A DNA stretch of 56,895 nt from a virus (IMGVR_UViG_3300025400_000022:1-56895), one strand, 5' to 3'; counted from the stretch's first letter, positions 1 to 42,123 are shown. Translations and numbers: made by a program. Notes: generated by a model from the letters alone, not told the origin.

Positions 1-231
1 ATCTACGTTCTGATGGACGATGAACAAGTGGATAAAATGGTCGGCTACCAGTACGAACACGTCATCACACTGGACAGCGCCAGCGAGTACGAGATGCTTT
101 GCGCGGTTGAGGAATGGTTTGAGGAGTCTTGCAGTCTGCGCTTCGTTCAGTCTGTCAGGAGCGCACTAGAGGGTGAAGACCCTAACAAGGGTTTCACCGT
201 TCTGATTGAACAGGGTTTCGGGGAAGACTAG
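1..231 (+). CDS. Hypothetical acidic early protein (5' partial)
   Basis: Frame 1 is open from base 1 (IYVLMDDEQ...) to TAG at 229-231, followed by GC-rich hairpins. Confidence 0.7.
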   Translation: MYVLMDDEQVDKMVGYQYEHVITLDSASEYEMLCAVEEWFEESCSLRFVQSVRSALEGEDPNKGFTVLIEQGFGED

Positions 232-327
232 GGGAGTGGGGTGGCTATCACAGCACCCCCTCACTGATACGCCGAGGGGGTGGGGTCACTTGACCCCGCC
301 CCCTTGAGGTATCCCCACTCTCTTTTT
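232..327 (+). terminator. Compound hairpin / intrinsic terminator
   Basis: Long stem gatac..gagggggtggggtca / tgaccccgcccccttg..gtatc (266-313); gagtgggg (234-241) is also complementary to ccccactc (313-320); then tcttttt. Confidence 0.6.
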
Positions 328-389
328 CGCGTGTGTGCACCCGTACGCGAATCGCGTGCAGGAATCGCGTATGCGAATCGCGTGCACGA
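327..389. repeat. TCGCGT/ACGCGA block, copy 1
   Basis: TCGCGT-gtgtgcacccgt-ACGCGA-A-TCGCGT..ATCGCGT..ATCGCGT. Confidence 0.9.
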
Positions 390-427
390 GATGACAATGG
401 CAATTTTACAAATAAAGTTGGGGAAAA

Positions 428-456
428 ATTATACCATAACGTCGGCCACAAGTCAA
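428..456 (-). promoter_or_regulatory. Antisense sigma70/SigA-type promoter
   Basis: Minus strand TTGACT-17 bp-TATAAT with TG extension; points into the CGCG block. Confidence 0.85.
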
Positions 457-467
457 GTCAATTCTAC

Positions 468-482
468 AGATAATGCCTATCT
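468..482. promoter_or_regulatory. Palindromic site AGATA-N5-TATCT, copy 1
   Basis: agata-atgcc-tatct between divergent -35 boxes; recurs at 1058, 1782, 2516. Confidence 0.75.
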
Positions 483-503
483 CAAAAAAAGATTGAAACC
501 GGC

Positions 504-532
504 TTGACTTTCTTCCCTGCACCTGCCATAAT
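504..532 (+). promoter_or_regulatory. Sigma70/SigA-type promoter
   Basis: TTGACT-17 bp-CATAAT with TG extension; followed by hairpin gggg-aaaag-cccc and RBS aaaggag. Confidence 0.85.
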
Positions 533-569
533 GGATACGTCGGGGAAAAGCCCCAACAAAGGAGATGAG

Positions 570-1001
570 ATGACCTACACCTACGAAACGCCTAAGGGCG
601 GAGTGTTCGAGAGCAACTATGCCCTCACAAAAGAACGTAGCGCCGACATTTGGTTCTGCGAAGGCGGTGGCATTGTAAACGCAATTGGAGACTACTACTA
701 TGGCAACGGTCGGGTGACTATCTACTGCTTGGGGGAGATGCGCCTAAACTTGGCAGACGGAACAGTCTGGCGAAGTGCTTGGGACTTGCCTAGCAACATC
801 ACTAACGACGAAGAACTAATGAACGTGTGGAGCGCCCCCGAAAACGACGTGGTGAACAACTGTTGGATAGAACTGTTCGACACCAGCGAGGGACAAGACG
901 TTGAGAACGAAGAGACCTACATCATTTGCGGGGACATTTGGGAAGCAATAGACGAAGCCCACGCCTACCTAGTGGCCACCTATCCAGAAGTTGAAGGGTA
1001 G
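570..1001 (+). CDS. Hypothetical acidic early protein
   Basis: ATG 570 after AAAGGAG; the ORF-track start at 504 is the promoter -35 box. Confidence 0.8.
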   Translation: MTYTYETPKGGVFESNYALTKERSADIWFCEGGGIVNAIGDYYYGNGRVTIYCLGEMRLNLADGTVWRSAWDLPSNITNDEELMNVWSAPENDVVNNCWIELFDTSEGQDVENEETYIICGDIWEAIDEAHAYLVATYPEVEG

Positions 1002-1012
1002 GTGGTGCAGGG

Positions 1013-1034
1013 TTCGCGTATACACACACGCGAA
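1013..1034. repeat. TCGCGT/ACGCGA block, copy 2 (single unit)
   Basis: tTCGCGT-atacacac-ACGCGAa. Confidence 0.85.
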
Positions 1035-1057
1035 GAATCTCGAGGTATCTAGAAAAA

Positions 1058-1112
1058 AGATAGGGGGTATCTACGAAAGTGATTTGACTTTTTTCCCTGC
1101 ACCTGTCATAAT
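1058..1112 (+). promoter_or_regulatory. AGATA-N5-TATCT site plus sigma70-type promoter
   Basis: Palindrome 1058-1072; TTGACT 1084-1089, 17 bp, CATAAT 1107-1112; nearly identical to the promoter at 504. Confidence 0.85.
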
Positions 1113-1152
1113 GGATACATACCGAAAAGCGGTATAACGAAAAGGAGAAACA

Positions 1153-1611
1153 ATGACCACAACCACTTACCCTGCTAAGGGAGTAATCACCTCTAGTTGC
1201 ACCTGCTACTACTGCCCTAGTTGCGAGATGACTTTCACGGACGACACCTATCCCGAAAACTGCGACTGCGGGACACCCTGCACACCTGCCTATGAGTCTT
1301 GCTCCGGCGAGTGCTGGGACTTCGCAACCGAAGACTTTGCCTACAACGCTTTTACTCCGTGGTGCTTGGCGAACGAGACCGACGAGTTCGCTATCTATGG
1401 TCGGCGTATGGGTTGGACTAACGGTAGCGGACACACGGGACGACTGACCGCGTTCAGGGAATTGCTGAACAACCTGACCCTGAACGGGGACTTCATTCTT
1501 CGCTGGGAGTTGAGCGAAGACAACAAGACCCTGACCGTCATTCGCTCTAGCCACGACGAAATGGGTGCGATGTTTGAGGTAGTGCCGTGGAATGAGGGAG
1601 ACGACGAGTAG
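1153..1611 (+). CDS. Hypothetical protein with Cys-rich (possible Zn-binding) N-terminus
   Basis: RBS AAAGGAG; CTCYYCPSC...CDCGTPC...CSGEC. Confidence 0.8.
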   Translation: MTTTTYPAKGVITSSCTCYYCPSCEMTFTDDTYPENCDCGTPCTPAYESCSGECWDFATEDFAYNAFTPWCLANETDEFAIYGRRMGWTNGSGHTGRLTAFRELLNNLTLNGDFILRWELSEDNKTLTVIRSSHDEMGAMFEVVPWNEGDDE

Positions 1612-1615
1612 GAGT

Positions 1616-1638
1616 AGGGTGGGGGGCGACCCCCACCT
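1616..1638 (+). terminator. GC-rich hairpin after ORF
   Basis: ggtggggg-gcga-cccccacc. Confidence 0.55.
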
Positions 1639-1650
1639 GAAACACCCCCT

Positions 1651-1714
1651 TCGCGTATGCCCGCATACACGCGAATCGCGTATCGCGTACACATACACGC
1701 GAACACGCACGCGA
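1651..1714. repeat. TCGCGT/ACGCGA block, copy 3
   Basis: Three TCGCGT and three ACGCGA separated by alternating purine-pyrimidine spacers. Confidence 0.9.
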
Positions 1715-1741
1715 GGAGATTTTACAAATAAAGTTGGGGAG

Positions 1742-1770
1742 ATTTTAGCACACGGGGCCACAAAAGTCAA
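1742..1770 (-). promoter_or_regulatory. Antisense sigma70-type promoter
   Basis: Minus strand TTGACT-17 bp-TAAAAT with TG extension. Confidence 0.8.
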
Positions 1771-1780
1771 GCATCAAAAG

Positions 1781-1846
1781 GAGATAGCCCCTATCTCAAA
1801 AATAGTTGGAAAACGATTTGACTTTTGCCCCGACCTATGGCATACT
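1781..1846 (+). promoter_or_regulatory. GAGATAG-N3-CTATCTC site plus sigma70-type promoter
   Basis: Palindrome 1781-1797; TTGACT 1818-1823, 17 bp, CATACT 1841-1846. Confidence 0.85.
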
Positions 1847-1894
1847 AGTTAGGTCGAGGAAACGCCGAGACAAACTACCGAAAGGATTACAACA

Positions 1895-2335
1895 ATGGAA
1901 CACGTCACTTACGGCACTGAGGTTGCCTCCGAGTTCACGCCCACTACCACCGCCGAGTTGGCGTTGGAAAACCGTGAGCGTGCAGTTGGGGTCAAGGAGC
2001 GTGCCATCACCGCTAAGGAGAATGACCTCTCCGAGCGTGAAGCATACCTCTCAAATGTCAAGGGTCAGATTATTGAGTTGGCTAAGTCCCTGATGGGTGA
2101 TGACGTTATTGTCGTTCAGCGTGAAGACTTTGATACTTTGGTTGATTTGGTGGAGACGGCTATCTCTAACTCCGAGGATAGCAAGGCGGCTATTGAAGAT
2201 TTGCAGTCTGAAATCTATGACCTGAAGCGGAACGCCGACAGCGTTGAGAGTAGCGCCGAAGATGCAAGTAGCAACCTTGAGAGTTCGCTTGCGGACTTGG
2301 AGAACGCCCTAGACAACCTGAAGGGTCTCGCTTAG
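1895..2335 (+). CDS. Acidic coiled-coil protein
   Basis: RBS GAAAGGA; heptad-like E/D/L/A/S-rich sequence. Confidence 0.8.
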   Translation: MEHVTYGTEVASEFTPTTTAELALENRERAVGVKERAITAKENDLSEREAYLSNVKGQIIELAKSLMGDDVIVVQREDFDTLVDLVETAISNSEDSKAAIEDLQSEIYDLKRNADSVESSAEDASSNLESSLADLENALDNLKGLA

Positions 2336-2336
2336 G

Positions 2337-2384
2337 CAACGGGTAGGGGGTTGGGCGCAAGCCCGACCCCCGATAACCCCGTTG
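2337..2384 (+). terminator. Nested hairpin with GCAA tetraloop
   Basis: caacggg..gggggttgggc-gcaa-gcccgaccccc..cccgttg. Confidence 0.6.
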
Positions 2385-2392
2385 GGGGCATT

Positions 2393-2441
2393 TCGCGTAT
2401 GTAGGCACGCGATTCGCGTATCGCGTACGTATGCACGCGAA
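2393..2441. repeat. TCGCGT/ACGCGA block, copy 4
   Basis: TCGCGT-atgtaggc-ACGCGA-T-TCGCGT-A-TCGCGT-acgtatgc-ACGCGA. Confidence 0.9.
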
Positions 2442-2475
2442 GCGACCCGAGGATTTTTAGAAAACGTATGGGGAA

Positions 2476-2504
2476 ATTATACCATAGGCCACACCAAAAG
2501 TCAA
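2476..2504 (-). promoter_or_regulatory. Antisense sigma70-type promoter
   Basis: Minus strand TTGACT-17 bp-TATAAT with TG extension. Confidence 0.85.
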
Positions 2505-2515
2505 GTATCAAAGGC

Positions 2516-2580
2516 AGATAGTCCCTATCTAAAAAAAAGATGCGTTTTGACTTGACAGCGACGCCGAGACCTGTCATAAT
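2516..2580 (+). promoter_or_regulatory. AGATA-N5-TATCT site plus ardC promoter
   Basis: Palindrome 2516-2530; TTGACA 2552-2557, 17 bp, CATAAT 2575-2580. Confidence 0.85.
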
Positions 2581-2625
2581 GGATACGTTCCGAAATGCGG
2601 AGCAACTAATCAAAGGAGCAAGCAA

Positions 2626-3516
2626 ATGAGCAAGACCGCTTACGAGGTAGTCGCCCAGACTATCATCAAGCAACTGGAAAACAACGTCGCACCGTGGCGC
2701 AAGGAATGGATAGCCTACGGATACAAGCCTAAGTCAATGAGCAGTGGCAAGACCTACAAGGGTATGAACTTTATGCTCTTGATGTTTGAGGCTATGGACA
2801 AGGGCTACGAAAGCCCGTGGTGGGGAACGTTCAAGCAGATTACCGAGCGTGGAGGCGTGGTCACGAAGGGCGAGAGGGGCACTCCCGTAGTCCTGTGGAA
2901 GCAGTTTGAGACCGAAAACGCTGACGGGGACAAGAAGAAGGCGGTGGTGATGCGCTACTTCACCGTGTTCAACGCCCAGCAAGCGACGTGGGAAGACGGG
3001 AAAGCGCCAGCCTACGATAAGCCCGTTGCCCGTGATGCCGTTGCAGTCATTGAGGGGGCGCAGAGCATTATGGACAACTACTTCGCCCGTGACAATGCAC
3101 CGAGCCTAGCCTTTGGTGGAAACCGAGCCTACTACTCACCTAGTCGAGACGGTATCCAACTTCCCCAGCAGTCCAACTTCGTGAGCGATAGTTCGTTCTA
3201 TGCAACGGCGTTTCACGAGATGGGTCACTCAACCGGTCACAAGTCACGCCTAAACCGTGACGGCGTCGTGGAAAACCACTACTTCGGTAGCGAACTCTAC
3301 AGCGAAGAGGAATTGGTGGCAGAGTTCACGAGTGCGTTTTTGTGCAGTGAAACCGGTGTTTTGCCCGAGACACTGGACAACAGCACCGCTTACATCAAGT
3401 CTTGGCTGAAGGTTCTGAAGAACGACCCGAAGATGCTAGTAAAGGCAGTGGGTCGGGCGCAGAAGGCTACGAACTTCATCACCGGCGCAGAGACGGAGAC
3501 GGTGGAAGCCGAGTAG
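2626..3516 (+). CDS. ardC: ArdC-family antirestriction protein (ssDNA-binding N-domain plus zincin-like domain)
   Basis: PWRKEW, Y.G.N..LL, WGTFKQ...GG.V.KGE.G, FTVFN.QQ, AYYSPS.D.I.LP, HEMGHSTGH.SRLNR, Y..EELVAE, YI.SW.K.LK.D. Confidence 0.92.
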   Translation: MSKTAYEVVAQTIIKQLENNVAPWRKEWIAYGYKPKSMSSGKTYKGMNFMLLMFEAMDKGYESPWWGTFKQITERGGVVTKGERGTPVVLWKQFETENADGDKKKAVVMRYFTVFNAQQATWEDGKAPAYDKPVARDAVAVIEGAQSIMDNYFARDNAPSLAFGGNRAYYSPSRDGIQLPQQSNFVSDSSFYATAFHEMGHSTGHKSRLNRDGVVENHYFGSELYSEEELVAEFTSAFLCSETGVLPETLDNSTAYIKSWLKVLKNDPKMLVKAVGRAQKATNFITGAETETVEAE

Positions 3517-3567
3517 TGGCAGGGGGTCGGGGCGAACGTGTGTTCGCTCCGGCTCCGCCATTTTTTT
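3517..3567 (+). terminator. Intrinsic terminator
   Basis: Long GC stem around gaac-gtgt-gttc followed by T7. Confidence 0.75.
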
Positions 3568-3622
3568 CGCGTGCGTGTATACGCGAATCGCGTAGGCGCG
3601 GGTACGCGAATCGCGTACGCGA
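3567..3622. repeat. TCGCGT/ACGCGA block, copy 5
   Basis: Three TCGCGT..ACGCGA units joined by single A. Confidence 0.9.
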
Positions 3623-3698
3623 GAGGATTTCTAAAGAAACTACGGGCGAAAGTAGCCAGTTTTTGAGAAAAAGATGGGGAAAAATTATCGCACGACTA

Positions 3699-3727
3699 AT
3701 TATAGCGTATGCGTGAGTGAAAGTCAA
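3699..3727 (-). promoter_or_regulatory. Antisense sigma70-type promoter
   Basis: Minus strand TTGACT-17 bp-TATAAT. Confidence 0.85.
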
Positions 3728-3786
3728 GAATAATTACGTGTCATACTGTAAGCCCCTCAGACGGGTTATTTATGGGAAGGTATCAG

Positions 3787-4077
3787 ATGACACAGAACTT
3801 GTATTTCGTGACGGCAGACGGGCTTATAGGCATCGCTGACGGGCTTTTGCTTGTGCGCAGTGACGAGGTGACTTGGACAGAGTTGCAGGAAGCCGTAGAG
3901 AAGCCTAATCCGAAGTCGCAGGTTATGCGACTGCTACAGCGTGACAAGGGTATTCGCCCAGACGCAGTTGCACTAACTAAGGCCACAGCGTTCACCACAC
4001 CAGAGGCGGCGCAGGAGTTCCGAGAAGACCTTGAAGAAAAAGGTTGGACTTGGCTTGACAAGGACACAAACCCCTGA
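3787..4077 (+). CDS. Hypothetical protein
   Basis: ATG after GGAAGG; upstream extended -10 TGTCATACT at 3739-3747. Confidence 0.7.
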   Translation: MTQNLYFVTADGLIGIADGLLLVRSDEVTWTELQEAVEKPNPKSQVMRLLQRDKGIRPDAVALTKATAFTTPEAAQEFREDLEEKGWTWLDKDTNP

Positions 4078-4083
4078 TACAAT
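4055..4083 (+). promoter_or_regulatory. Sigma70-type promoter
   Basis: TTGACA-17 bp-TACAAT; followed by AAAAG-loop hairpin 4088-4110. Confidence 0.85.
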
Positions 4084-4128
4084 GGTTGAGTACCGGAAAA
4101 GCCGGTGCTTTTATCAGAAGGGATTACC

Positions 4129-4515
4129 GTGGGAGACCGTGGAAACATCAAGTTAGTTAGTGAATACGGACAGCCGATTTACTTTTACACTCATTGGACT
4201 GCTTACCGACTGCCCGAAATTGTGGCGCAGGGGCTGGACAAGGGGCGTGACCGGTGGGGCGATGAGGACTACCTCAATCGTATCATCTTTCAGACGCTCC
4301 TCGGAGGCGACGAGAGCAACCTTTCTTACGGCATCAGTACCCGTGAGGCTGGCGACGCTTGGCGCTTGGTAGAAGTAGACCACGTAAAGGAAGAAGTTTC
4401 TATCTATGAGCGTGTCTACAGCGAAGACTTTGCGGACAGTCACTGGCGACCCGTCTATGAGCCTAAGTCGTTTCACGAGTTTGTCCTTGACTTTCTCCCC
4501 GTGGTAGCGGTATGA
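4129..4515 (+). CDS. Hypothetical phage protein (MGDRGNI..FYTHW)
   Basis: GTG after GAAGGGA, in frame with ORF-track 4105..4515. Confidence 0.8.
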   Translation: MGDRGNIKLVSEYGQPIYFYTHWTAYRLPEIVAQGLDKGRDRWGDEDYLNRIIFQTLLGGDESNLSYGISTREAGDAWRLVEVDHVKEEVSIYERVYSEDFADSHWRPVYEPKSFHEFVLDFLPVVAV

Positions 4516-4784
4516 TGAAGTTCGAGGATTGGTGGAACCAGTATCAGCCCCTAGATAATCATTTCCAATCTAGGGCATACTACTTTGTCAAGATGTTCGA
4601 GACCTACGGCGAGGAACTGGAGTTTGTTCAGGGTCAGCCCGTCGAGATGGTGTGGACGGAACTGGACGACGGAACCATTGTGAACGGCTACCACATTGTG
4701 AACAGAATGGGCTACTACATCACAGTCAAGCCGTGGAGCGAGGAAACTGTGGTCGAGGACGAAGAGTTGGAAGAATTGGACTAG
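4512..4784 (+). CDS. Hypothetical acidic protein
   Basis: ATGA overlap with upstream stop; acidic C-terminal tail. Confidence 0.8.
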   Translation: MMKFEDWWNQYQPLDNHFQSRAYYFVKMFETYGEELEFVQGQPVEMVWTELDDGTIVNGYHIVNRMGYYITVKPWSEETVVEDEELEELD

Positions 4785-4816
4785 GAGGTTGCCCCCGAAG
4801 TTTGGGGGCAATCTCC
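4784..4816 (+). terminator. GC-rich hairpin
   Basis: ggaggttgcccccgaa-g-tttgggggcaatctcc. Confidence 0.65.
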
Positions 4817-4821
4817 CCCTA

Positions 4822-4884
4822 TCGCGTGTGCGCATACGCGAAATCGCGTATCGCGTGGGCATGTACGCGAATCGCGTACGCGAA
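4822..4884. repeat. TCGCGT/ACGCGA block, copy 6
   Basis: Four TCGCGT and three ACGCGA. Confidence 0.9.
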
Positions 4885-4915
4885 GAGTTTTTCAAAAAAA
4901 AATGGGGAAAATGAT

Positions 4916-4944
4916 TTGACATTGACGTCGGCGTGTGTCATACT
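4916..4944 (+). promoter_or_regulatory. Sigma70-type promoter
   Basis: TTGACA-17 bp-CATACT with TG extension; AAACG-loop hairpin 4951-4969. Confidence 0.85.
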
Positions 4945-4990
4945 GTTTGGGTCGAGAAAACGTCTCGGCAATTTACCGAAAGGATTACCA

Positions 4991-5197
4991 ATGGCGACAG
5001 CCACTAAGAAAGTTGTAAGCACCGAGGTTCAGGATACTGAAGATGACAGCCCTACGTCGTACAGCGTGACGGTAATGGTTGAGTACCGGTTTGACGTAGA
5101 TGCCGACGGCGAAGCGGAAGCGGAAGCCGAGGGCTGGCGCTACGAAGACTACAAGGGTTTTGCATCAGTATACAGCATTGACGTGGAGGAGAACTAA
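4991..5197 (+). CDS. Small very acidic protein (MATATKK...)
   Basis: ATG after GAAAGGA; likely true start inside ORF-track 4652..5197. Confidence 0.8.
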   Translation: MATATKKVVSTEVQDTEDDSPTSYSVTVMVEYRFDVDADGEAEAEAEGWRYEDYKGFASVYSIDVEEN

Positions 5198-5343
5198 TGA
5201 CCAACTACACCACTATTGAGCAGTTAGTAGAGGCGGTGCAGAAAGCACTCCCGAATTGCGACATTGACCTTGACAACGAGGGTCAGGTCATCATTTACAC
5301 CAACTATTCATTCATTGACGGCGTTCTAAAGGAGAGCGAATAA
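5197..5343 (+). CDS. Small hypothetical protein (48 aa)
   Basis: TAATG coupling at both ends; RBS GGAGGAG. Confidence 0.7.
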   Translation: MTNYTTIEQLVEAVQKALPNCDIDLDNEGQVIIYTNYSFIDGVLKESE

Positions 5344-5513
5344 TGGCAAAAATGTATGTAGGCTTTGACGGCAACTATGGTAGCGCCGAGGATTACGACC
5401 TCTTTATCTTCGACACCGAGGATTTTAGCGAGGCGCAACTGCACCTTTTTGATGAAGACCCCGCCGAGTTTTACCTACGGGCGACGAGCGACGACTGGGA
5501 GGGCTTAGAGTGA
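5343..5513 (+). CDS. Small acidic hypothetical protein (56 aa)
   Basis: TAATG coupling; RBS AAAGGAG. Confidence 0.7.
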   Translation: MAKMYVGFDGNYGSAEDYDLFIFDTEDFSEAQLHLFDEDPAEFYLRATSDDWEGLE

Positions 5514-5674
5514 GGAGCGCAACCGAGGCGTCGAGCGCCCTTATCCTATACGCCGAGCGCAAGTTTCACGGCGAGGAGACGGAAGCCAACGAACTGCTGT
5601 ATTCTTTGCTAGTAGAGATGCTACAGTGGAACGTAGCAGTCACGGACAAAGTTTTCGATTTCTTTGACCACTGA
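5510..5674 (+). CDS. Small hypothetical protein (54 aa)
   Basis: GTGA overlap; RBS GGGAGG. Confidence 0.6.
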   Translation: MRSATEASSALILYAERKFHGEETEANELLYSLLVEMLQWNVAVTDKVFDFFDH

Positions 5675-5675
5675 C

Positions 5676-5704
5676 TTGACAAAGTAAAAAACCCCTGTTA
5701 TAAT
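5676..5704 (+). promoter_or_regulatory. Consensus sigma70-type promoter
   Basis: TTGACA-17 bp-TATAAT with TG extension; AAAAG-loop hairpin 5711-5729. Confidence 0.9.
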
Positions 5705-5746
5705 AGATGAGTACCGGAAAAGCCGGTGCAGAGACAAAGGAGCATA

Positions 5747-6226
5747 ATGCACGTATTACATTTTATCGCAGTAGAGGCTGACAACGCCGAAGACGCAATC
5801 TCTCAAGTAGACATTGCTTTGACGCACGATGACAACCCCGTTTTTCCGTGGAGCGACTGGGCAGAAATCGGGGGGCGCTGGGAGGACGAGGGCGAGGTTC
5901 ACTGCTACGCAGACGACCCCACAAAGTTTGAGGACTTTTTGGAGCGTGCCCGTCTCAACCGAGTGAATGAAATCAAGTTTCTGTTGAGCAACATTGACAC
6001 CGAGGCAATCATTGAAGAAGTGCGCAACTTTGATGGCCGTGATGCCGGACGCAGTCTTGATTTTTACCATCTCCGTCAGGCTATTGCCATTGCCGAGGGC
6101 AACGGAAAGCACGATGCCTACTTCTACGACCTGAAAGAATGGTGCGAAGACTTCAAGTATCTCCGTGAGCGCATGGAAACAGACCCCACTCGTCAATTCT
6201 TAGTCTTGGTAGATTTTCACCACTAG
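5747..6226 (+). CDS. Hypothetical phage protein (W..IGGRW ... VDFH)
   Basis: ATG after AAAGGAG. Confidence 0.8.
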   Translation: MHVLHFIAVEADNAEDAISQVDIALTHDDNPVFPWSDWAEIGGRWEDEGEVHCYADDPTKFEDFLERARLNRVNEIKFLLSNIDTEAIIEEVRNFDGRDAGRSLDFYHLRQAIAIAEGNGKHDAYFYDLKEWCEDFKYLRERMETDPTRQFLVLVDFHH

Positions 6227-6229
6227 GAC

Positions 6230-6258
6230 TTGACAAAGCAAAAAACCCGTGGTACAAT
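6230..6258 (+). promoter_or_regulatory. Sigma70-type promoter
   Basis: TTGACA-17 bp-TACAAT with TG extension; AAAAG-loop hairpin 6262-6284. Confidence 0.88.
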
Positions 6259-6303
6259 GGTTCATCACCGAAAAGCGGTGGTGACAGACAGAAAGGATAC
6301 AAA

Positions 6304-6522
6304 ATGGGAGAGCACCACGTTTACTTCGTAAGCATTACTTGCGACCACATGGTTCTAAACACTGTTGTCTACTACGACAGAACGCCCGACGACGACCGGC
6401 TGGAAGCGGACATTGAAGACGTTCTGCTGGAACTTGCATCACGAAAGATTTTTCAAGAATACGGTTTCAACCCCTACAACTGGGCTATTGACACCGACTA
6501 CACCTACGGAGGAGAACAATAA
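6304..6522 (+). CDS. Hypothetical protein
   Basis: RBS AGAAAGGA. Confidence 0.75.
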   Translation: MGEHHVYFVSITCDHMVLNTVVYYDRTPDDDRLEADIEDVLLELASRKIFQEYGFNPYNWAIDTDYTYGGEQ

Positions 6523-6689
6523 TGACTGTAAACTATGACACCGACGGGACGCCATACATGGAGGTCTCTTACACCTACACCGTAAGCGTTATCGCTGAAA
6601 ACGCTGATGAGGCGCTGATGTACGCTGACGGGCTTTTCAACGACCAGACGGGCGCAAACCCCAATGACTTTCACGTGGAGGTGCTGTAA
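6522..6689 (+). CDS. Small acidic hypothetical protein (55 aa)
   Basis: TAATG coupling at both ends; RBS GGAGGAG. Confidence 0.7.
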   Translation: MTVNYDTDGTPYMEVSYTYTVSVIAENADEALMYADGLFNDQTGANPNDFHVEVL

Positions 6690-6913
6690 TGAGTACCTAC
6701 ACGCACTATTTTGTGGTGGGCTACCACAAAGACCGTGGGTTCTTTTGCGACACCGACGTCTTGGAAGCACATTTTCCTGACGGCTGTATCTGGGATGAAG
6801 ACCTACAAGAGTATCTTCGTATCCCTGACCAGGGATTTAGGGAATACGACGCCGACCTTTATTCGGCGCTACTGCATTACATCCGCAAACTAAACGAAGA
6901 AGGAGGCTACTAA
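6689..6913 (+). CDS. Hypothetical protein
   Basis: TAATG coupling; RBS GGAGG. Confidence 0.75.
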   Translation: MSTYTHYFVVGYHKDRGFFCDTDVLEAHFPDGCIWDEDLQEYLRIPDQGFREYDADLYSALLHYIRKLNEEGGY

Positions 6914-7110
6914 TGAGTAAGTGGATTATCAAGGACTGGGCGGGCAACCGACTGTGGACAGAGTTCGGGAGCGACGACCCGAACCTATCGTTCAACAGTT
7001 TTGAGGAAGCGTGGGACTTTATCTACGTCGCAAAGCCCGAACCAGAAGAAGACAGCCCAGACTGGGTTGATGGCTGGTACGACGACTACTTCGTGGAGGA
7101 GTCAGAATGA
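6913..7110 (+). CDS. Small acidic, Trp-rich hypothetical protein
   Basis: TAATG coupling; RBS AGGAGG. Confidence 0.75.
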   Translation: MSKWIIKDWAGNRLWTEFGSDDPNLSFNSFEEAWDFIYVAKPEPEEDSPDWVDGWYDDYFVEESE

Positions 7111-7299: not shown

Positions 7300-7357
7300 T
7301 CGCGTGTGTATACGTATCGCGTACGCGAATCGCGTATATATATCGCGTATACGCGAA
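7300..7357. repeat. TCGCGT/ACGCGA block, copy 7
   Basis: Four TCGCGT and two ACGCGA with (TA)n and (GT)n spacers. Confidence 0.9.
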
Positions 7358-9100: not shown

Positions 9101-9334
9101 TTAGTTGTCGCCACGCTTCTTGAACGGCGTTAGGCCGCTCGTAAAGGCGTAGAGAAGGGCGTAGATGAACGTGGCCTGCCAGAAGCCCATAGGTCGGAAC
9201 TGGGGCGCCCAGCGATGAATGTCGCCCGCCAAAAGCATCGTCACCAGTCCGCCCACCAATGCGGCGAGAGGCCACATCAGAAAACTGAAGATAGCAAACG
9301 TCAGGTTGCTAGTAGTCTTGAACTTTACCTGCAT
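9101..9334 (-). CDS. Small membrane protein
   Basis: Two hydrophobic segments, GFWQA motif, TAATG coupling. Confidence 0.7.
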   Translation of the reverse strand: MQVKFKTTSNLTFAIFSFLMWPLAALVGGLVTMLLAGDIHRWAPQFRPMGFWQATFIYALLYAFTSGLTPFKKRGDN

Positions 9335-9603
9335 TAGTTATCCTTGTCGAGCACCGCTACGATGCCGGCAACTGGGACCTGAACGTACTTGACGCCGGCA
9401 ATCTCAACTGCGTATGCCAAACCGTGCTTGAAGACAACACTGTCGCCCTCACTGATGCCCTCAACGTCGGGGCCAACTGAGATAACCTCAGCAATGTCGG
9501 GCAGTGGTACTGCGCCCTGTGGAATTACGAGACCCGTCTCTGTGGTCTTTTCTTTGTGCTCCATGCGAAGAATCACATTGTCGCTAGTGGCCTTGAAAGC
9601 CAT
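9334..9603 (-). CDS. groES: GroES/Cpn10 co-chaperonin
   Basis: DNVIL..E.E.TT.TGLVIP..A..EVISVGP.V.G...GD.V.F....E..G.KY..V....IVAVL. Confidence 0.9.
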   Translation of the reverse strand: MAFKATSDNVILRMEHKEKTTETGLVIPQGAVPLPDIAEVISVGPDVEGISEGDSVVFKHGLAYAVEIAGVKYVQVPVAGIVAVLDKDN

Positions 9604-11251: not shown

Positions 11252-11665
11252 CTAGATTCCCTTCAAGATGTTTTGCAGATTAGCACGGAAATTGCCTACT
11301 TCTTGGTAGCCGGCGGTCTCGATGTGCATAATAGCCTTTTCAATTCGGCGTTCCAGTTCGCTCCGAGATGGGCGACTTGGCTCTGCTGCTTCGCCGGCCT
11401 CCCAGATTACAGCATTGCGACCCGATGAGTTCTTGCGACGCAGTTGAGAGTCTCGAACTCGTCCCTCAAGAACCAATGCTCGGCGTCGAGCGGTAATGGA
11501 AGAAATCTGCATACCAAGAACCTTGGCTACTTCTTGGTCGGTGCGTGGCTTTTCGCTAATGAGCGAGTAAACTTTTTCCAGTTGGGTTTCAACCAAGTGT
11601 TCAACAGATTCTGCGGCCTCTCGGCTGGTCTTAGAACTCCGTTGAAATGGTGCTGTAATTTTCAT
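11252..11665 (-). CDS. Winged-helix DNA-binding protein
   Basis: TS.EAAES..T.QEVA..LG...SSITARR..LV..G.V.DS..RR...SGR.A.IW; RBS AAAGGAG. Confidence 0.8.
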   Translation of the reverse strand: MKITAPFQRSSKTSREAAESVEHLVETQLEKVYSLISEKPRTDQEVAKVLGMQISSITARRRALVLEGRVRDSQLRRKNSSGRNAVIWEAGEAAEPSRPSRSELERRIEKAIMHIETAGYQEVGNFRANLQNILKGI

Positions 11666-11872: not shown

Positions 11873-11901
11873 TTGACTGCGACGCTGGAAAATGTTAGAA
11901 T
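11873..11901 (+). promoter_or_regulatory. Sigma70-type promoter
   Basis: TTGACT-17 bp-TAGAAT with TG extension; hairpin gttgcag-atagg-ctgtaac follows. Confidence 0.8.
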
Positions 11902-11946
11902 GGATGCGTTGCAGATAGGCTGTAACATTCGAGAGAAAGGAATTAC

Positions 11947-12279
11947 ATGTTCTTAATGGACAAATTTATTGCAGAAGCAGACGACTTGGAGTTGGAGTTG
12001 CTAAAGCCTACTAACTTAGAGTTGCTTAACGACTACTACTTTGCTATGGAGGCGGTCAGCGACAACGGAAACTGGTTCGGCTACATTGTTTTGCCCGACA
12101 ACCGTGAGGTTGCTGTTGCTTACAATGCGGCGTCTGGTGCCACCAAATACCGCAAAGACGATGCTTACTATCAGTTTGCGGACGACGCCAAGAAGATTTT
12201 CCCTTTGGATTCTTGCGCAATTGACACTATGAGCGCACTTTTGGTGCTGTCAGAAGCACGGGGCTGGGACGACGCATGA
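11947..12279 (+). CDS. Hypothetical protein
   Basis: RBS AGAAAGGA. Confidence 0.75.
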   Translation: MFLMDKFIAEADDLELELLKPTNLELLNDYYFAMEAVSDNGNWFGYIVLPDNREVAVAYNAASGATKYRKDDAYYQFADDAKKIFPLDSCAIDTMSALLVLSEARGWDDA

Positions 12280-13075: not shown

Positions 13076-13499
13076 AAAACTCACAAAGGAAGAGCGTTGG
13101 GAAGTTAGCGAACGCTGGCGCGCAAATGCAATCATTGAAAAGTCCGTTAGGGACGACAAGAATGTTATTGAAGAACTGACCTCTCACTTTGTTGCCCGCC
13201 GTTTGATTGAAGAATTGACCGGTGAGGAGGTTGTGCTGAACAAAAAGAATCGCCGGCAAGACCCTAATAAGGTCCTGCCGGCGTGGGGCAAAGAAAACGT
13301 TGGTCGAGAGATGACCACTGAAGAAATTCAAAACTCGCTTGGGGTAACTTACTCTATTGTAATAAAGTTGCTCAAGAACACCGACTACTTTTACAAGGTC
13401 AAGCGAGGGCTGTATAAAGTTTACGATGGTGCGGGAGACCGAGAAGCGGCTAAGGTCGCTAGCAAGAAAAAGGTTGATGCACCTGCTACACTGATTTAG
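13068..13499 (+). CDS. Hypothetical protein, possible C-terminal wHTH
   Basis: MTTEEIQNSLGVTYSIVIKLLK..YF.KVKRGLY.V. Confidence 0.7.
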   Translation: MTKKLTKEERWEVSERWRANAIIEKSVRDDKNVIEELTSHFVARRLIEELTGEEVVLNKKNRRQDPNKVLPAWGKENVGREMTTEEIQNSLGVTYSIVIKLLKNTDYFYKVKRGLYKVYDGAGDREAAKVASKKKVDAPATLI

Positions 13500-13558: not shown

Positions 13559-14266
13559 CTATTCTACGACTTCCCCGTCAATAAGACCAGAGGCCCAGGT
13601 AGGCGTCATGCCGTCGCCAAGGTCCATGATAGAGCGAGCAAACATTGTGCGTGCTGTCTCAATCTGGTTTTCCTTAAGGTTCAGGTCACGGCTAAGAATA
13701 ACAGCCATGAACGCCGCGCCAATCATGTTGGCTTGTTGCTCCTCGAGCGCCACGATGCGCTTCTGCAAGTCAAACTTGAGCAAGAACTCTAGGGACTTTT
13801 GGTATCGCTCCCAAGCACGTTCAAGAACCTCAATAAGCGCACGGGTGTGCTCAATGCCTGTCTTGTCAGTGACCTCTAGGATGCCGTTTAGTTCCTGCAA
13901 CTTTTCTTCAAGCACCAGAGACCACTGCTTCATTTTACCGGCCAGTACAAAGGCTTCTACCTCTGGTGGTCGAATGGGTTCAGGCTCTCCAAGGCGCTCA
14001 GTAAGCGTTGCAAACTCACGCTTCATTTGAACCTGCACAGCGCCCTTGACGTGAGTAGGCGTTGAGCCACCATGCCACTTACAGCGACCTTCGCCAAGGT
14101 GGGAAGTGCCCATGCCTTGTGTTTTGACGCAGTAGCGAGTAATGTCAAGTTCTTTGAGTTCCTTGCTACGAAGCCTGGCCCCGCATTTGCCCTCAACGGG
14201 TTCTGCGGAGCCAGGAATCTTTTGGTCTGGGTATGTTTCACTCCAAAGGAGTTCATCGTCGGTCAT
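13559..14266 (-). CDS. HGGxSTG-like domain protein, possible terminase small subunit
   Basis: CGAR..C...G.GT.H.G.GRCKWHGGSTP followed by a helical region; the TerS role is inference. Confidence 0.6.
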   Translation of the reverse strand: MTDDELLWSETYPDQKIPGSAEPVEGKCGARLRSKELKELDITRYCVKTQGMGTSHLGEGRCKWHGGSTPTHVKGAVQVQMKREFATLTERLGEPEPIRPPEVEAFVLAGKMKQWSLVLEEKLQELNGILEVTDKTGIEHTRALIEVLERAWERYQKSLEFLLKFDLQKRIVALEEQQANMIGAAFMAVILSRDLNLKENQIETARTMFARSIMDLGDGMTPTWASGLIDGEVVE

Positions 14267-14410: not shown

Positions 14411-14872
14411 TCATGCCTTCAATTTCTTTTCTGCCTCTTCGGCCTTTTTCTTGCGTCGGTATTCGGCAATGTATTCACGATGTGCGGCCTTACATGGGTC
14501 ACACATTGGCTCAAGCCGCTTGTTGTGAAGGATGTAGCCCTTCTCAGTGCCGTGAGCAATGGGAACGTCCGAAACAAGGTCTCCTCGCTTTTGAGCACGG
14601 CGCTCTTTCTGCAACTGCTTATTGATTGTACGGTCAAAAAACGGCTGAGAAATGCCAAGCGCACGACGCTTTGCGTATCGCTCTCGTTCTGTTGTGCCCG
14701 CCCAAAATCCGTAATGCTCGTACTGCATTGCTTGCTTTAAACACTGCTCCTTTACGGGGCAAACATCACAAAGTTCGTAGCATTCTTCTGACGGCTCTTC
14801 TGCAAAGAAATCAAGCCCGCTGTTTCGACAAGCGGCATCGTCTGCCCATTCATAGTTGCGAATTGGTTCCAT
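14411..14872 (-). CDS. whiB: WhiB-family regulator with C-terminal HGT..GY..H..C..C module
   Basis: W...AAC..DFF..CDVCPVKEQC...A...GFWAGTTERER. Confidence 0.88.
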   Translation of the reverse strand: MEPIRNYEWADDAACRNSGLDFFAEEPSEECYELCDVCPVKEQCLKQAMQYEHYGFWAGTTERERYAKRRALGISQPFFDRTINKQLQKERRAQKRGDLVSDVPIAHGTEKGYILHNKRLEPMCDPCKAAHREYIAEYRRKKKAEEAEKKLKA

Positions 14873-15075
14873 TAGATAGAAAACCAATCTTCTGGCAGTT
14901 CCCAGTCTTCGACGTTTCCAAGTCGCACCATGTGGGCGCAGGGGTCTAGGCCCTCGTCCCAAGCACGCTCTTCGGATTCATGCAAAGGGTAGGCATCGTG
15001 GGTCATGCAAAACTGCTCACTGCAAAACCCCTTCTCCATACCAATCTTGTACCATTGTTCAAACGTTATTTCCAT
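14872..15075 (-). CDS. Hypothetical protein (C..HD..P...DPC.H motif)
   Basis: RBS AGAAAGGA; TAATG coupling. Confidence 0.75.
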   Translation of the reverse strand: MEITFEQWYKIGMEKGFCSEQFCMTHDAYPLHESEERAWDEGLDPCAHMVRLGNVEDWELPEDWFSI

Positions 15076-15089: not shown

Positions 15090-15590
15090 TTAAAAACACT
15101 CTTTGTCTGCTGACCACTCGGGCAAAAATCCCCCGTTGGCTTTATACACTGCTACTGCTACTGCGTCTTGCTCAGGACCACTCGCATTCTGAGCAAGTGC
15201 CGCATACTTTAAGCCACCGTAGTGAGCCCAAATGTAGTCGGCAAATTGGTAAAGCCCTCCATCACCAGAGTAAACATTTACGCTTGTCGGGTGATTGGTT
15301 GATTCGTGAAACCGGATGCACGCAAAGGCTGCTTGGGCTGAGAGCGGAATCGAGGCAATGGGGCTTGACGCTGAAGGCCAGTAGGCCGTTGAGTCCGTTG
15401 CCCTTGTGTCCCATTCGTTTCCTGCACTAAGTTTTGCTGCTGGTTTTGAGGCTGGCTCTGGGAACTTGATTTCAAGAATAGCCTCTGTTGTTTTAATGTT
15501 TGCTTTGTCATTTGCATCAATTGTACCATGGTTAGCACTATGATTGCAAATCAATGTGGCAATAAAAATTGCCGCTATTACGTTTTTCAT
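15090..15590 (-). CDS. Secreted Rpf-like / lysozyme-fold transglycosylase
   Basis: Signal-peptide-like N-terminus; CIRFHES..N...GGLYQF...W..YGG..A..AS..EQ..VA. Confidence 0.8.
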   Translation of the reverse strand: MKNVIAAIFIATLICNHSANHGTIDANDKANIKTTEAILEIKFPEPASKPAAKLSAGNEWDTRATDSTAYWPSASSPIASIPLSAQAAFACIRFHESTNHPTSVNVYSGDGGLYQFADYIWAHYGGLKYAALAQNASGPEQDAVAVAVYKANGGFLPEWSADKECF

Positions 15591-16093
15591 TACAGCCTTT
15601 CTCTAGCGGCACAATGAAGATTTTTCACAGGCCCAGAGACGCTGGTGGAATACTTGATTGCTGCTTCCACTGCGCCGGTTAGCGCACCCTTGTTCAACTC
15701 TTTGCGACCTTCTAGGTAGCCAAGAGCGTAGGGCGAACCGGAACCCACTGCCATAAACGGTGAGTTCAATTGAAGAACCGAAAAGTCATTCTGAATAATG
15801 ACCAACGGTTTTCCGGGCCACGCACAAAGAATCTCCATGTCAGACATAGAGGATTCTTCGCCCGTAATCCCTTTAAGCAAATCCACAATGTTTTGTGGAG
15901 TGCAGTTTTCGGACTTCAAGGAAGCAACGAGGTTGATTACTCGCCACGACCCTGCAACTCCGATTAACCCATTGCCGGCATGTTTGATTGCCTTGGGCGT
16001 CTTTACTTCAAAAATCATTCCGTCGCCGGAAGCACCGGAGTCGAAAGACATTGAGCATTCGTCTTTGTTTGTGTATGCAACGATGACACTCAT
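15590..16093 (-). CDS. HslV/proteasome-beta-like Ntn-hydrolase fold protein
   Basis: MSVIVA..DS..K..LIGVAGS..AVGSGSPYALG.L..AVEAAIK..SV.GP. Confidence 0.78.
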   Translation of the reverse strand: MSVIVAYTNKDECSMSFDSGASGDGMIFEVKTPKAIKHAGNGLIGVAGSWRVINLVASLKSENCTPQNIVDLLKGITGEESSMSDMEILCAWPGKPLVIIQNDFSVLQLNSPFMAVGSGSPYALGYLEGRKELNKGALTGAVEAAIKYSTSVSGPVKNLHCAARERL

Positions 16094-17289
16094 CAGTCCC
16101 ACACGCCATCAAACAAGAACTGACGGTCACGCAAAATACGGTCAGGCCAGTCTACACCCTGCAAACGGTCGCCACGGAAACGCTTTACATGGAGCATGGT
16201 CTTATCCACTTCGTCCTTGTAGAGCGAGATACCGGTCTCAGGCCACGCCATCCATCGTTGCGAACCCATAGGGGTGAGTTCACGCTCGCCCTTGGCACCC
16301 TTGGCGGCGTGGTGCTCCATGACCAAAGCAAAGTCGTATGTTGTGCGCAGTTTGTCAAGTACCGCCATTGCGCCGTCGGCAGAGTCTTCGTAGGTCTCGT
16401 TAGCCCCACGTCGATACATCTTGTAAATGGGTCCAATGCATACCAACTCTGGTCGGTGCGCCGCAATCTCACGCTGAATCTCAGCGAGGTCAGACAACTT
16501 GCGAATCTCAATGCCACCGGGACGACGGAAAAACTTCAGTCGGCTCTCGTCGTAGTTATCGCCCACACGCTCACGAAGCATGTTCATAAATGGAACACCG
16601 GTTTGGGTAATGGCCTGCGTAGGGTTCTCGAGGTCAATGATGAGCGCCCGAACTGGCGGAATCTCACGGTGACTAAACGGGTGAACGCCCTGCGACGCAG
16701 CCATCGCAATGGTGCGAAGAATCATTGACTTACCGGCACCTTCCTCGGCCACAACAATTGTGCGGCTTTCACGGGTCATCATGCCGGGGATAACAATAGG
16801 CGCAATGGAATCAGCGTTCATCTCAAGTTCGCTCATCGTCATTGCTTCGGGCTGAACTGAGCGTACAGCACCGACGCCAGCAATAACATTGCCCATTGTC
16901 TGAGCCACTTCGTATGGACTGCCACCAGTCTCAATAGAATCTTGAGCCTTCTGCAAATCGGAGAGCAAACGCCGAGCGGCGGCGTGCTTCGCAACAATAG
17001 CGGCGTAACCATCGGCGTTGTTTGCCGAGGGGCAGTTGACCGACATGCTGACAATGGTTGAAACCAACGAACTGTTGTTGAGTTCCGCCGAAATCGTCAC
17101 GGGGTCGACCTTTTCGCCACGACTAAAAATGTTGCAAATGGCACCAAAAATGTCGGAGTTGCGAGGACGGTAAAAGTCCTCAGCCGTCACAAGGTCTGCG
17201 GCGGTGATAATAGCCCCCACCGAAAGAATCATTGCTCCAATGAGCGAATCCTCGGCAACCAAGTCATGTGGAATCTTCTTTTCTGTCAT
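16093..17289 (-). CDS. Replicative helicase: DnaB N-terminal domain plus RecA-fold ATPase
   Basis: PHD..AE.SLIGAM..EDFY.P....IF.AI..VDPVT; Walker A AEEGAGKS; IDLEN; MEHHA.K; P.GS..W. Confidence 0.88.
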   Translation of the reverse strand: MTEKKIPHDLVAEDSLIGAMILSVGAIITAADLVTAEDFYRPRNSDIFGAICNIFSRGEKVDPVTISAELNNSSLVSTIVSMSVNCPSANNADGYAAIVAKHAAARRLLSDLQKAQDSIETGGSPYEVAQTMGNVIAGVGAVRSVQPEAMTMSELEMNADSIAPIVIPGMMTRESRTIVVAEEGAGKSMILRTIAMAASQGVHPFSHREIPPVRALIIDLENPTQAITQTGVPFMNMLRERVGDNYDESRLKFFRRPGGIEIRKLSDLAEIQREIAAHRPELVCIGPIYKMYRRGANETYEDSADGAMAVLDKLRTTYDFALVMEHHAAKGAKGERELTPMGSQRWMAWPETGISLYKDEVDKTMLHVKRFRGDRLQGVDWPDRILRDRQFLFDGVWD

Positions 17290-29200: not shown

Positions 29201-29476
29201 CCAAACCGCAATGGTGGAGGTTGCCAGATTAACAGAAGAGCAAAGAATGTGCTCCTCGTTTGTTTCGCCCGGATTCAACACAATTACAAATGGACCTGAA
29301 GTGCCAAGCGGGTTTGTTGTTGCTTGACCCGTGGCGCTTACTTCGTACCAACCCGCCAAAGAAGCAACCGTGATGCCTTGATTGGGGATGTAAGAGTTAG
29401 GTACGTCTGTTGTAATGTACGTGGGCGGAACGGAGCCTCCGTACGAACGAATTGTTGTTGAAGTTGGGTATGCCAT
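26216..29476 (-). CDS. Long tail fibre with collagen-like G-X-Q repeats
   Basis: Three collagen tracts, [13 protein letters not shown] and GGTG shaft motifs, Ser/Thr-rich C-terminal domain. Confidence 0.88.
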
Positions 29477-29479
29477 TGT

Positions 29480-30349: not shown

Positions 30350-30358
30350 AATGACTCC

Positions 30359-32661: not shown

Positions 32662-32668
32662 GACGGTA

Positions 32669-33229: not shown

Positions 33230-33243
33230 ATTTGTCCTTTGTT

Positions 33244-36749: not shown

Positions 36750-36751
36750 AA

Positions 36752-40092: not shown

Positions 40093-40093
40093 T

Positions 40094-41335: not shown

Positions 41336-41378
41336 GTCGTTCCCCTCAGAGCGGCAGTAAATGCCCCATTATAGAGAC

Positions 41379-41407: not shown

Positions 41408-41416
41408 GGATTTACT

Positions 41417-42121: not shown

Positions 42122-42123
42122 TG

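Follow-up and report, generated by a model that had tools for sequence, protein, structure and literature searches.

A promoter-coupled hairpin with a conserved pentaloop at the predicted 5' ends of early transcripts in a tailed phage and its relatives

Short stem-loops near the starts of transcripts or genes have been described in several bacterial and phage systems, and here we compare them with a hairpin that recurs in the virus record IMGVR_UViG_3300025400_000022:1-56895, where it follows each of eight plus-strand promoters of the presumptive early region and carries a five-nucleotide loop of the form A-N-A-N-G. The window, by which we mean the whole stretch of DNA analyzed, is an entire single IMG/VR virus record, linear, of 56,895 bases and with a CheckV completeness of 65%; positions are counted from its first letter.

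The 5' stabilizers of the Escherichia coli ompA and papA and Bacillus subtilis aprE messages are short stem-loops at the 5' end, with few or no unpaired nucleotides (nt) before them and a ribosome-binding site after them, and they act in cis (PMC3997798; this and the other papers given by PMC number are cited for the accessible parts of their text). In that account, terminal base-pairing slows the decay that depends on RNase E in E. coli and on RNase J in B. subtilis, RppH requires at least 2 unpaired 5' nucleotides, and Emory 1992, Bouvet and Belasco 1992, and Hambraeus 2002 are cited for 5' stabilization. The hairpin described here has the same predicted layout. It differs in recurring within a genome, with 10 transcripts in one phage and 19 in a relative carrying it, and in the conservation of the A-N-A-N-G loop and of the G-C pair that closes it, and stabilization is here a prediction from anatomy.

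The nearest described cassettes are those named PeSLs in T4-type phages, in which a near-consensus sigma-70 promoter, a stem-loop, and a Shine-Dalgarno site are repeated before small orphan early genes in a hypervariable region (PMC2839356, PMC4122927). The cassettes of the window share this arrangement. According to the same sources, the PeSL stem-loop lies between or over the promoter boxes, serves as a terminator for upstream transcription, and has a stem of the G(n)/C(n) type, whereas in the window the stem-loop lies past the -10 box at the predicted +1, has no T tract, and keeps its loop, and separate GC-rich hairpins farther upstream are the likely terminators. Cassette shuffling of the PeSL kind may still take place as a by-product.

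In lambdoid phages, the boxB hairpin of the nut sites has a G-first pentaloop with a GNRA-like fold, is bound by N, and has boxA on its 5' side. It resembles the window's hairpin in its small stem, in the purine-rich pentaloop placed in an early leader, and in having one loop position free; the window's hairpin differs in its A-first, G-last loop, its position at the predicted +1, its lack of a boxA, and its occurrence once per small unit rather than once per long operon. The hairpins of phage N4 are DNA elements with 3-nt loops that lie upstream of the start and stand in place of a sigma-70 promoter. They likewise are short hairpins at the start of early phage transcription, whereas in the window a full sigma-70-type promoter precedes each hairpin and no open reading frame (ORF) exceeds 1,200 amino acids (in a record 65% complete); an N4-type hairpin promoter was rejected on the 5-nt loops and on the sigma-70-type promoter before all eight early copies. 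Hairpin promoters of the N4 virion RNA polymerase are the subject of PMC4496689 and PMC13492108. In the Cluster O mycobacteriophages, also actinobacterial phages, many small inverted-repeat copies of a 17-bp element stand near gene starts (PMC4351075); their half-sites are invariant and orientation-free, as for a DNA-binding site, whereas those studied here vary with compensation and are strand specific.

The element is a variation on known 5' stabilizer hairpins and promoter-hairpin cassettes. The hairpin itself is without a published description; literature searches aimed at such an element brought up nothing beyond the PeSLs, the promoters of N4, and the repeats of Cluster O, each of which is different.

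Hairpins and promoters in the window

Eight near-consensus promoters (TTGAC(A/T)-17-TG-one base-NANNNT, with 9 to 12 of the 12 hexamer positions matched) occur in positions 1-7110, and every one of them (8/8) is followed by a stem-loop. The loop is AAAAG in five copies (starts at 546, 1125, 4097, 5718, and 6271), AAACG in two (1860 and 4958), and AAATG in one (2593). A first-pass annotation of this DNA had placed and counted these eight hairpins in the same way, and direct reading of the sequence, a scan, and RNAfold all agree with it; the ATAGG variant that it reported after the promoter at 11873 is also real (11908-11926). The promoters and hairpins of the window are listed below, with minimum free energy (MFE), fold z-score against dinucleotide shuffles (z), and score under the covariance model R1, which is introduced after the list.

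Promoter 504-532 (TTGACT-17-CATAAT, with TG) and hairpin 539-557, plus strand: GTCGGGG AAAAG CCCCAAC, one C-A mismatch; MFE -7.0, z -2.1, R1 24.0 bits; ORF 570-1001 downstream.
Promoter 1084-1112 and hairpin 1119-1135, plus strand: ATACCG AAAAG CGGTAT; z -4.1, R1 23.3 bits; ORF 1153-1611 downstream.
Promoter 1818-1846 and hairpin 1853-1871, plus strand: GTCGAGG AAACG CCGAGAC, interrupted by a tandem G-A/A-G mismatch; z -1.2 (weakest of all the copies), R1 19.4 bits; ORF 1895-2335 downstream.
Promoter 2552-2580 and hairpin 2587-2603, plus strand: GTTCCG AAATG CGGAGC, with a T-G pair; z -3.6, R1 18.6 bits; ArdC-like gene 2626-3516 downstream.
Promoter 4055-4083 and hairpin 4088-4110, plus strand: core GTACCGG AAAAG CCGGTGC; MFE -13.2, z -5.1, R1 24.5 bits; ORF 4129-4515 downstream.
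Promoter 4916-4944 and hairpin 4951-4969, plus strand: GTCGAGA AAACG TCTCGGC, closing pair A-T; z -3.8, R1 22.0 bits; heads the four-gene unit 4991-5674.
Promoter 5676-5704 (12/12 consensus) and hairpin 5711-5729, plus strand: GTACCGG AAAAG CCGGTGC; z -3.8, R1 25.1 bits; ORF 5747-6226 downstream.
Promoter 6230-6258 and hairpin 6262-6284, plus strand: core ATCACCG AAAAG CGGTGGT; z -5.1, R1 24.8 bits; heads the unit 6304-7110.
Promoter 11873-11901 and hairpin 11908-11926, plus strand: GTTGCAG ATAGG CTGTAAC; z -3.6, R1 19.0 bits; conserved ORF 11947-12279 downstream.
Promoter 17431-17403 (TTGACA-17-TATACT) and hairpin 17394-17376, minus strand, an additional copy: CAACTCA AAAGG TGAGTTG; z -4.3, R1 16.7 bits; within the 3' end of the replication-initiator ORF and upstream of the DnaB-like gene (start 17289).
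Promoter 11737-11709 and hairpin 11702-11685, minus strand, a possible hexaloop variant whose loop starts with A and ends with G: GAACGC ATTGGG GCGTTC; z -4.4, no R1 match; winged-helix-like ORF 11252-11665 downstream.

A scan for perfect stems around AAANG loops recovered seven of the eight early hairpins and missed 1853-1871 through its 2x2 mismatch, yet RNAfold draws that copy as well. The seven stems are perfect over 4 to 9 bp, the C-A mismatch of the 539 copy lying outside its 4-bp core. In the eight early copies the perfect stem begins 3 to 9 nt past the -10 box, so that the placement first noted is right and its range of 3 to 7 nt is too narrow, and the loop starts 12 to 13 nt past the box. 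Around random genome positions, a search interval of the same size held a pentaloop hairpin of at least 6 bp 4.8% of the time and, with the loop restricted to A.A.G, 0.19% of the time, and the fold z-scores lie between -3.6 and -5.1 for 9 of the 11 hairpins folded. On these frequencies and z-scores, a chance origin of the hairpins is excluded.

R1, a covariance model of the 23-nt hairpin, was run unfiltered on both strands of the window. It returned 10 promoter-associated copies at 16.7 to 25.1 bits, which are its own training sequences, and a next best match at 13.2 bits, with no further copies inside operons, between promoterless genes, or in the late region. Because Shine-Dalgarno sites without a hairpin stand before the internal genes in the units 4991-5674 and 6304-7110, the element occurs once per transcript and not once per gene.

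Stem covariation, strand, and predicted transcription start

Pairing in the stems was examined across three phages in a set of 21 hairpins. From 36 promoter-anchored pentaloop hairpins listed, 19 were kept and two were added by hand (window 1851-1873 and L076 569-591); those left out were 10 class-I hairpins of L075, which have a different loop family, and 7 short hairpins of 4 to 5 bp with unrelated loops (window 4524, 11687, 7504, and 2448; L075 8736; L076 6120 and 4185). In this set, which was selected partly for having a stem, 93.9% of the stem cells are paired, against 54.2% after shuffling, and 55 cells are double changes; the covariation score is 1.015 against 0.230, none of 500 shuffles reached it, and all seven pairs change on both sides. 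When the partner was slid by 1 to 3 columns, pairing fell to 31-52%. An independent set of 19 hairpins from the relative G158, chosen by loop motif and position only, gave the same picture, with 87.2% of cells paired against 61.5% and a covariation of 0.609 against 0.165 (0/500 shuffles).

In a set of 46 hairpins, from which one false pick (L343 12843) is omitted, the 322 stem cells hold 25 G-U pairs and 6 A-C mismatches. The sense strand folds better in 35 of them, the antisense strand in 7, and the two are equal in 4, with a mean difference of -2.4 kcal/mol (Wilcoxon p 6e-6). Because of the covariation, the excess of G-U over A-C, and the better folding of the sense strand, the selected structure is the sense-strand fold, and most simply an RNA. 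The first-pass annotation had described variable stems with compensatory changes and T-G pairs as a sign of RNA-level folding, and these data agree with it.

The same comparison bears on a DNA-level role, in which the element would be an operator, a cruciform, or a recombination hot spot, either bound as DNA or serving the shuffling of promoter-gene cassettes, as proposed for the T4-type PeSLs. The units do resemble repeated regulatory cassettes before orphan genes, the gene content of the relatives is very different, and a PeSL crossover in RB49 was mapped inside a loop (PMC2839356). However, the half-sites are not conserved, unlike those of the true palindromes of these phages, and all seven stem pairs vary; a G-T pair would be an A-C on the other strand (25 versus 6), and it is the sense strand that folds better. 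Shuffling could, moreover, be a by-product and not the selected function, and we consider a DNA-level role very improbable. A palindromic DNA operator was rejected, as half-site sequence is not conserved and G-T pairs are common.

A -10 box is recognizable before 43 of the 46 hairpins, and the loop starts 11 to 15 nt past it (13 to 14 nt in 33). Sigma-70-type polymerases usually start at the seventh base after the -10 box. That nucleotide is a purine in 38 of the 43 cases, and the 6- to 7-bp core stem begins with it in most of the window's copies. Transcription would, by this geometry, start at the first stem base, and the extra upstream pairing that is possible in some DNA copies would not be in the transcript. 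Past the stem, 41 of the 46 hairpins have at most 2 T in 8 nt; a ribosome-binding site follows the hairpin at 0 to 12 nt, and the 3' flanks have no other shared motif. An intrinsic terminator or attenuator was rejected, as none of the hairpins is in the terminator-scan list and no T tract follows the stem.

The distance to the ribosome-binding site is also what bears on a promoter-proximal pause hairpin, which would detain RNA polymerase around +30, where it covers the ribosome-binding site, and so couple transcription to the first ribosome. The hairpin ends at about +19 to +21, the Shine-Dalgarno site lies about 10 nt farther on, and hairpin-dependent pauses occur at about that distance. Pause hairpins, however, need no specific loop, and the Shine-Dalgarno site follows at anything from 0 to 12 nt, which leaves pausing the least probable of the explanations weighed here.

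The conserved loop and 5'-end protection

Among the 46 hairpins, the first loop position is A in 43 (G in 3), the third is A in 45, and the fifth is G in all 46; the closing pair is G-C in 44, and loop positions 2 and 4 take all four bases. The promoters at 504 and 1084 are identical at 33 of 35 positions from -35 to -1 (504-538 and 1084-1118), and when the two hairpins are lined up at the loop, which is the same in both, their 5' stem arms match at only 1 of 7 positions. The ArdC-like gene and the 11947 ORF are each preceded by a hairpin whose orthologs have different stems, partly through compensatory change, in phages whose proteins are 60-72% identical. Because the stems of the 504/1084 pair differ around the same loop and the orthologous stems have diverged, loop conservation is, on this comparative evidence, not a matter of inheritance alone, which points to purifying selection on the loop across diverged phages. 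As to the 504/1084 pair itself, either the promoter part has been homogenized or the unit of exchange begins at +1.

Three simpler accounts of the loop were dropped. As a Shine-Dalgarno mimic it would be a poor one, with C at position 4 in 16 of 46 copies and G in only 3; nearest-neighbor rules are not known to give a thermodynamic bonus for a 5'-A/3'-G first mismatch; and the ANTAR-type elements are dual hexaloop hairpins, whereas here there is a single pentaloop hairpin. The loop is probably also a contact site for a host or phage factor, or a required local fold.

Since the stem stands at the predicted first transcribed base, with no T tract and with a ribosome-binding site nearby, the anatomy is that of a 5'-terminal stabilizer. 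The reading that we favor, with moderate confidence, is a 5'-terminal RNA stem-loop that blocks 5'-end-dependent decay and whose loop is selected for a putative reader. The host RNA polymerase of the sigma-70/SigA type would start at a purine that is the first stem base, so that the hairpin would make up the first 17 to 23 nt of each early phage mRNA, and the 5' triphosphate end would be base-paired once the stem had been transcribed, with the ribosome-binding site following within 0 to 12 nt. The paired end would be denied to pyrophosphohydrolases of the RppH type, to the 5' sensor of RNase E, and to the 5' exonuclease RNase J, and the A-N-A-N-G loop with its G-C closing pair would be the contact site for the factor or the required local fold. 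Messages that end in a GC-rich 3' hairpin (4 of the 8 units) would have protection at either end. Both the reader and the protection itself are predictions. Stabilization had been one of the roles suggested by the first-pass annotation, and it fits the anatomy, with the stem at the predicted +1; the start site and the effect on half-life are predicted.

GC-rich hairpins follow several early genes, at 232-300, 1612-1660, 2336-2395, 3517-3566, and 4785-4830, and a T tract is found only at 3523-3556. Terminators poor in U tracts have been proposed for actinobacteria, and these hairpins are likely terminators of that kind, to judge from their sequence.

Several points weigh against protection as the function. 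It would not by itself explain an invariant loop, and no candidate reader of the loop was found among the phage proteins searched (Pfam, PHROG, and the conserved nonstructural proteins). For the 19 copies of G158, the loop pattern itself was used in making the tallies; a stem-only scan independently gave the same loops for 16 of the 19. Two copies in the window are thermodynamically weak (539-557 and 1853-1871, with z-scores of -2.1 and -1.2). There is no RNA run among the listed sequencing runs with window DNA, and the start site rests on promoter geometry. In the relative G001, a second class of hairpins starts 10 to 12 nt past a TATAGT -10 box, which would leave about 4 to 6 unpaired 5' nucleotides unless weaker outer pairs form. 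Finally, RNase J and RNase E are assumed to be present in the host on a phylum-level guess; actinobacteria possess both enzymes.

The constancy of the loop may also be read as the mark of a translational operator or sorting tag, that is, as the site at which a phage or host protein, bound to the A-N-A-N-G loop beside the ribosome-binding site, switches the translation or decay of all early messages together. Global early shut-off or preferential translation would follow, and 5'-end protection would be secondary. Diverged phages scarcely differ in the closing pair or at loop positions 1, 3, and 5, the hairpin ends 0 to 12 nt before the Shine-Dalgarno site, and G001 has two loop classes tied to two promoter variants, all of which would suit such a protein. 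However, the hairpin is found per transcript and not per gene, the internal genes of multigene units being without it; no RNA-binding protein was recognized among the phage proteins searched; and the two classes of G001 also share spacer sequence and may be two duplication lineages. We regard this explanation as unlikely.

Antitermination was another role proposed for the hairpin in the first-pass annotation. The nascent hairpin would act alone, as HK022 put does, or with an N-like protein, as lambda boxB does, and would let polymerase read through terminators. A single promoter-proximal copy per transcript, a purine-rich pentaloop, and the terminator-like GC-rich hairpins after several early genes would all fit. 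Nearly every gene or short unit, however, has its own promoter and hairpin, which makes read-through superfluous, and polymerase reading on would override the terminators that separate the units. Of the 8 units, 4 have their own terminator-like hairpin. The loop is A-first (43/46) and G-last (46/46) and not G-first and GNRA-like as in boxB, a hairpin at the predicted +1 leaves no room on its 5' side for a boxA, and no small arginine-rich, N-like protein was found among the translated early ORFs (in a record 65% complete). A single 19-nt hairpin is also far smaller than the two-hairpin put RNA (PMC9378689). These observations do not support the proposal of lambda-type antitermination, and we consider antitermination of the boxB/N or put kind very unlikely.

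Returning to protection with a loop reader, one could go further and take the hairpin for an identity tag. A dedicated host or phage protein would read the G-C-closed A-N-A-N-G tip at the 5' end and so tell the early messages of the phage apart from those of the host, whether to translate them, to protect them, or to shut them off at a set time, and the loop classes (A-N-A-N-G versus AAGTA in G001) would mark temporal classes. This idea is tentative, and we think it possible but doubtful. If true, it would add an undescribed post-transcriptional layer common to a family of freshwater actinobacterial phages. If the favored reading of a protective 5' hairpin holds, a whole family of uncultured freshwater phages would build its early genes from standard parts, namely, regulator site, promoter, 5' hairpin, ribosome-binding site, small gene, and terminator. 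The element could also serve as a compact portable 5' leader for actinobacterial gene expression, and the invariant loop as bait for an RNA-binding factor in hosts that are hard to grow; the free stem beside the fixed loop is a natural mutagenesis experiment that shows which bases matter.

Relatives, the phage, and neighboring elements

Relatives that bear the hairpin were found via the ArdC-like protein and the conserved ORF 11947-12279. L076 has six hairpins with loops as in the window, and its ortholog of the 11908-11926 hairpin is GTTGCGG AAACG CCGTAAC, with a compensatory A-T to G-C change. In L329, which is closest when relatives are compared by the 11947 ORF (85% identity), a hairpin with the loop AAGAG occupies the orthologous place. 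L075 (relative G001) has four ACAAG loops after TATACT promoters and one AAACG loop. It also has, in 103-7014, the second class mentioned above, ten hairpins with the stem GTTTGC/GCAAAC, including G-U and compensatory variants, and the loop AAGTA, AAATA, or AAGTC. Few early genes are common to the relatives, and gene content differs greatly between them. The nonstructural proteins common to all hairpin-bearing relatives gave no RNA-binding lead; in the window, the ORF 13559-14266 weakly resembles a small terminase, and Atlas gave nothing usable for the ORF 11947-12279.

The record behind L337 is G158, a complete genome of 78,902 bp with terminal repeats, of which L343 is the part 28000-47000. 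All eight R1 matches in it (8/8) lie within promoter cassettes. R1 found further sites on which it was not trained in L077/L081, L078-L080, L331, L333, L337, and L342; one of these (L078 5008) has no promoter at the proper distance and may be a chance match. As negative controls we used 65 IMG/VR capsid relatives (about 1.04 Mb), which have in common with the window only the structural module at 46-56.9 kb, and they gave no R1 match at E values up to 5 and no such promoter-linked hairpin. The covariance-model search envisaged in the first-pass annotation thus finds a motif that is coupled to promoters in the window, present in related early regions of IMG/VR, and absent from the controls.

Broader searches were also made. 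A pattern scan of IMG/VR for a promoter followed by GAAAAGC matched at least 118 stretches, a number that is not a measure of how widespread the motif is; among the matches listed, 9 had a stem of at least 5 bp, and these resemble chance or coding sequence. A narrower promoter pattern gave 9 single matches. A model that joins the -10 box and the hairpin (R2) found 9 sites in the window's own record as a positive control, and it found none in Actinomycetota genomes (0/5, 0/101, and 0/151, the last two samples overlapping) at the thresholds used and with part of the candidates scored; with the host only guessed at, this is a weak negative. Rfam 15 had no match at the gathering score over the whole window, and at E values up to 1 it gave one unrelated weak match (2345-2371) in positions 400-6400. 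Nothing similar to the window was found in the GenBank phage collection by megablast, by blastn, or by tblastn with the capsid protein.

The window belongs to a tailed phage, with a tape-measure-like ORF of 1,200 amino acids (the largest ORF), a weak SU10-type capsid match, and collagen-like fiber proteins, and its replication and recombination module comprises a DnaB-like helicase, a replication initiator, RecA, YqaJ, and Erf. Positions 1-7110 hold small plus-strand ORFs, and the ArdC-like anti-restriction gene is the sole early gene with a named family; Pfam and PHROG searches of 10 early ORFs left 9 without a family and assigned 1 to a PHROG of unknown function only. Other genes of the window are as follows.

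9334-9603, minus strand: GroES-like protein.
14411-14962, minus strand: WhiB-like regulator.
15090-15590, minus strand: Rpf-like transglycosylase.
15590-16102, minus strand: HslV-like peptidase.
26216-29476 and 33244-35481, minus strand: two ORFs for collagen-repeat fiber proteins.

According to a study of freshwater actinophages, WhiB is exclusive to Actinobacteriota and its presence indicates an actinophage (PMC10202952). Among cellular sequences, the window's RecA is best matched in Actinomycetota genomes, at 54-58% identity, and DNA of the window is present in freshwater metagenomes. Because of the WhiB-like and Rpf-like genes, the RecA matches, and this freshwater occurrence, the host is probably a freshwater actinobacterium.

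G158 carries 27 palindromes of 16 bp (ATCGCGC, two bases, GCGCGAT), all on one strand and between 31.7 and 42.8 kb (31731-42781). An extended -10 box follows 24 of the 27 at 13 to 16 nt, and in 19 of these 24 cases a hairpin, a GAAAGG ribosome-binding site, and a small ORF come next. In L077, L078, and L337, the same palindrome takes the place of the -35 box, and the extended -10 box, the spacing, and the hairpin are unchanged; palindrome sites are also found at L077 8530-8607 and 11290-11363 and at L078 5300-5379 and 6000-6074. Because the palindrome stands at -35 in G158, L077, and L078, the hairpin can be said to persist despite a change of promoter type. The palindrome that replaces the -35 box could be an activator or a repressor site that governs the set of early cassettes.

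In the window, a 15-bp palindrome (TACGCGA, A or T, TCGCGTA) stands in the intergenic regions upstream of early promoters, at 344-384, 1668-1682, 2406-2427, 3580-3617, 4864-4878, and 7322-7336. With up to 2 mismatches allowed, it is matched 9 times where 0.08 would be expected, and it is invariant and separate from the hairpin. To judge from its sequence, it is probably the binding site of a dimeric DNA-binding protein, and two ORFs that look winged-helix-like, 11252-11665 on the minus strand and 13233-13499 on the plus strand, are candidates for it on that resemblance only.

Four leftward near-consensus promoters lie in the same intergenic regions on the minus strand, at 456-428, 1770-1742, 2504-2476, and 3727-3699. 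Three of them have TG upstream of the -10 box (3727-3699 does not), and they have no convincing ORF and no hairpin at +1. Their transcripts would run for about 150 to 200 nt through the palindromes into the GC-rich terminator hairpins and may be small noncoding or antisense RNAs.

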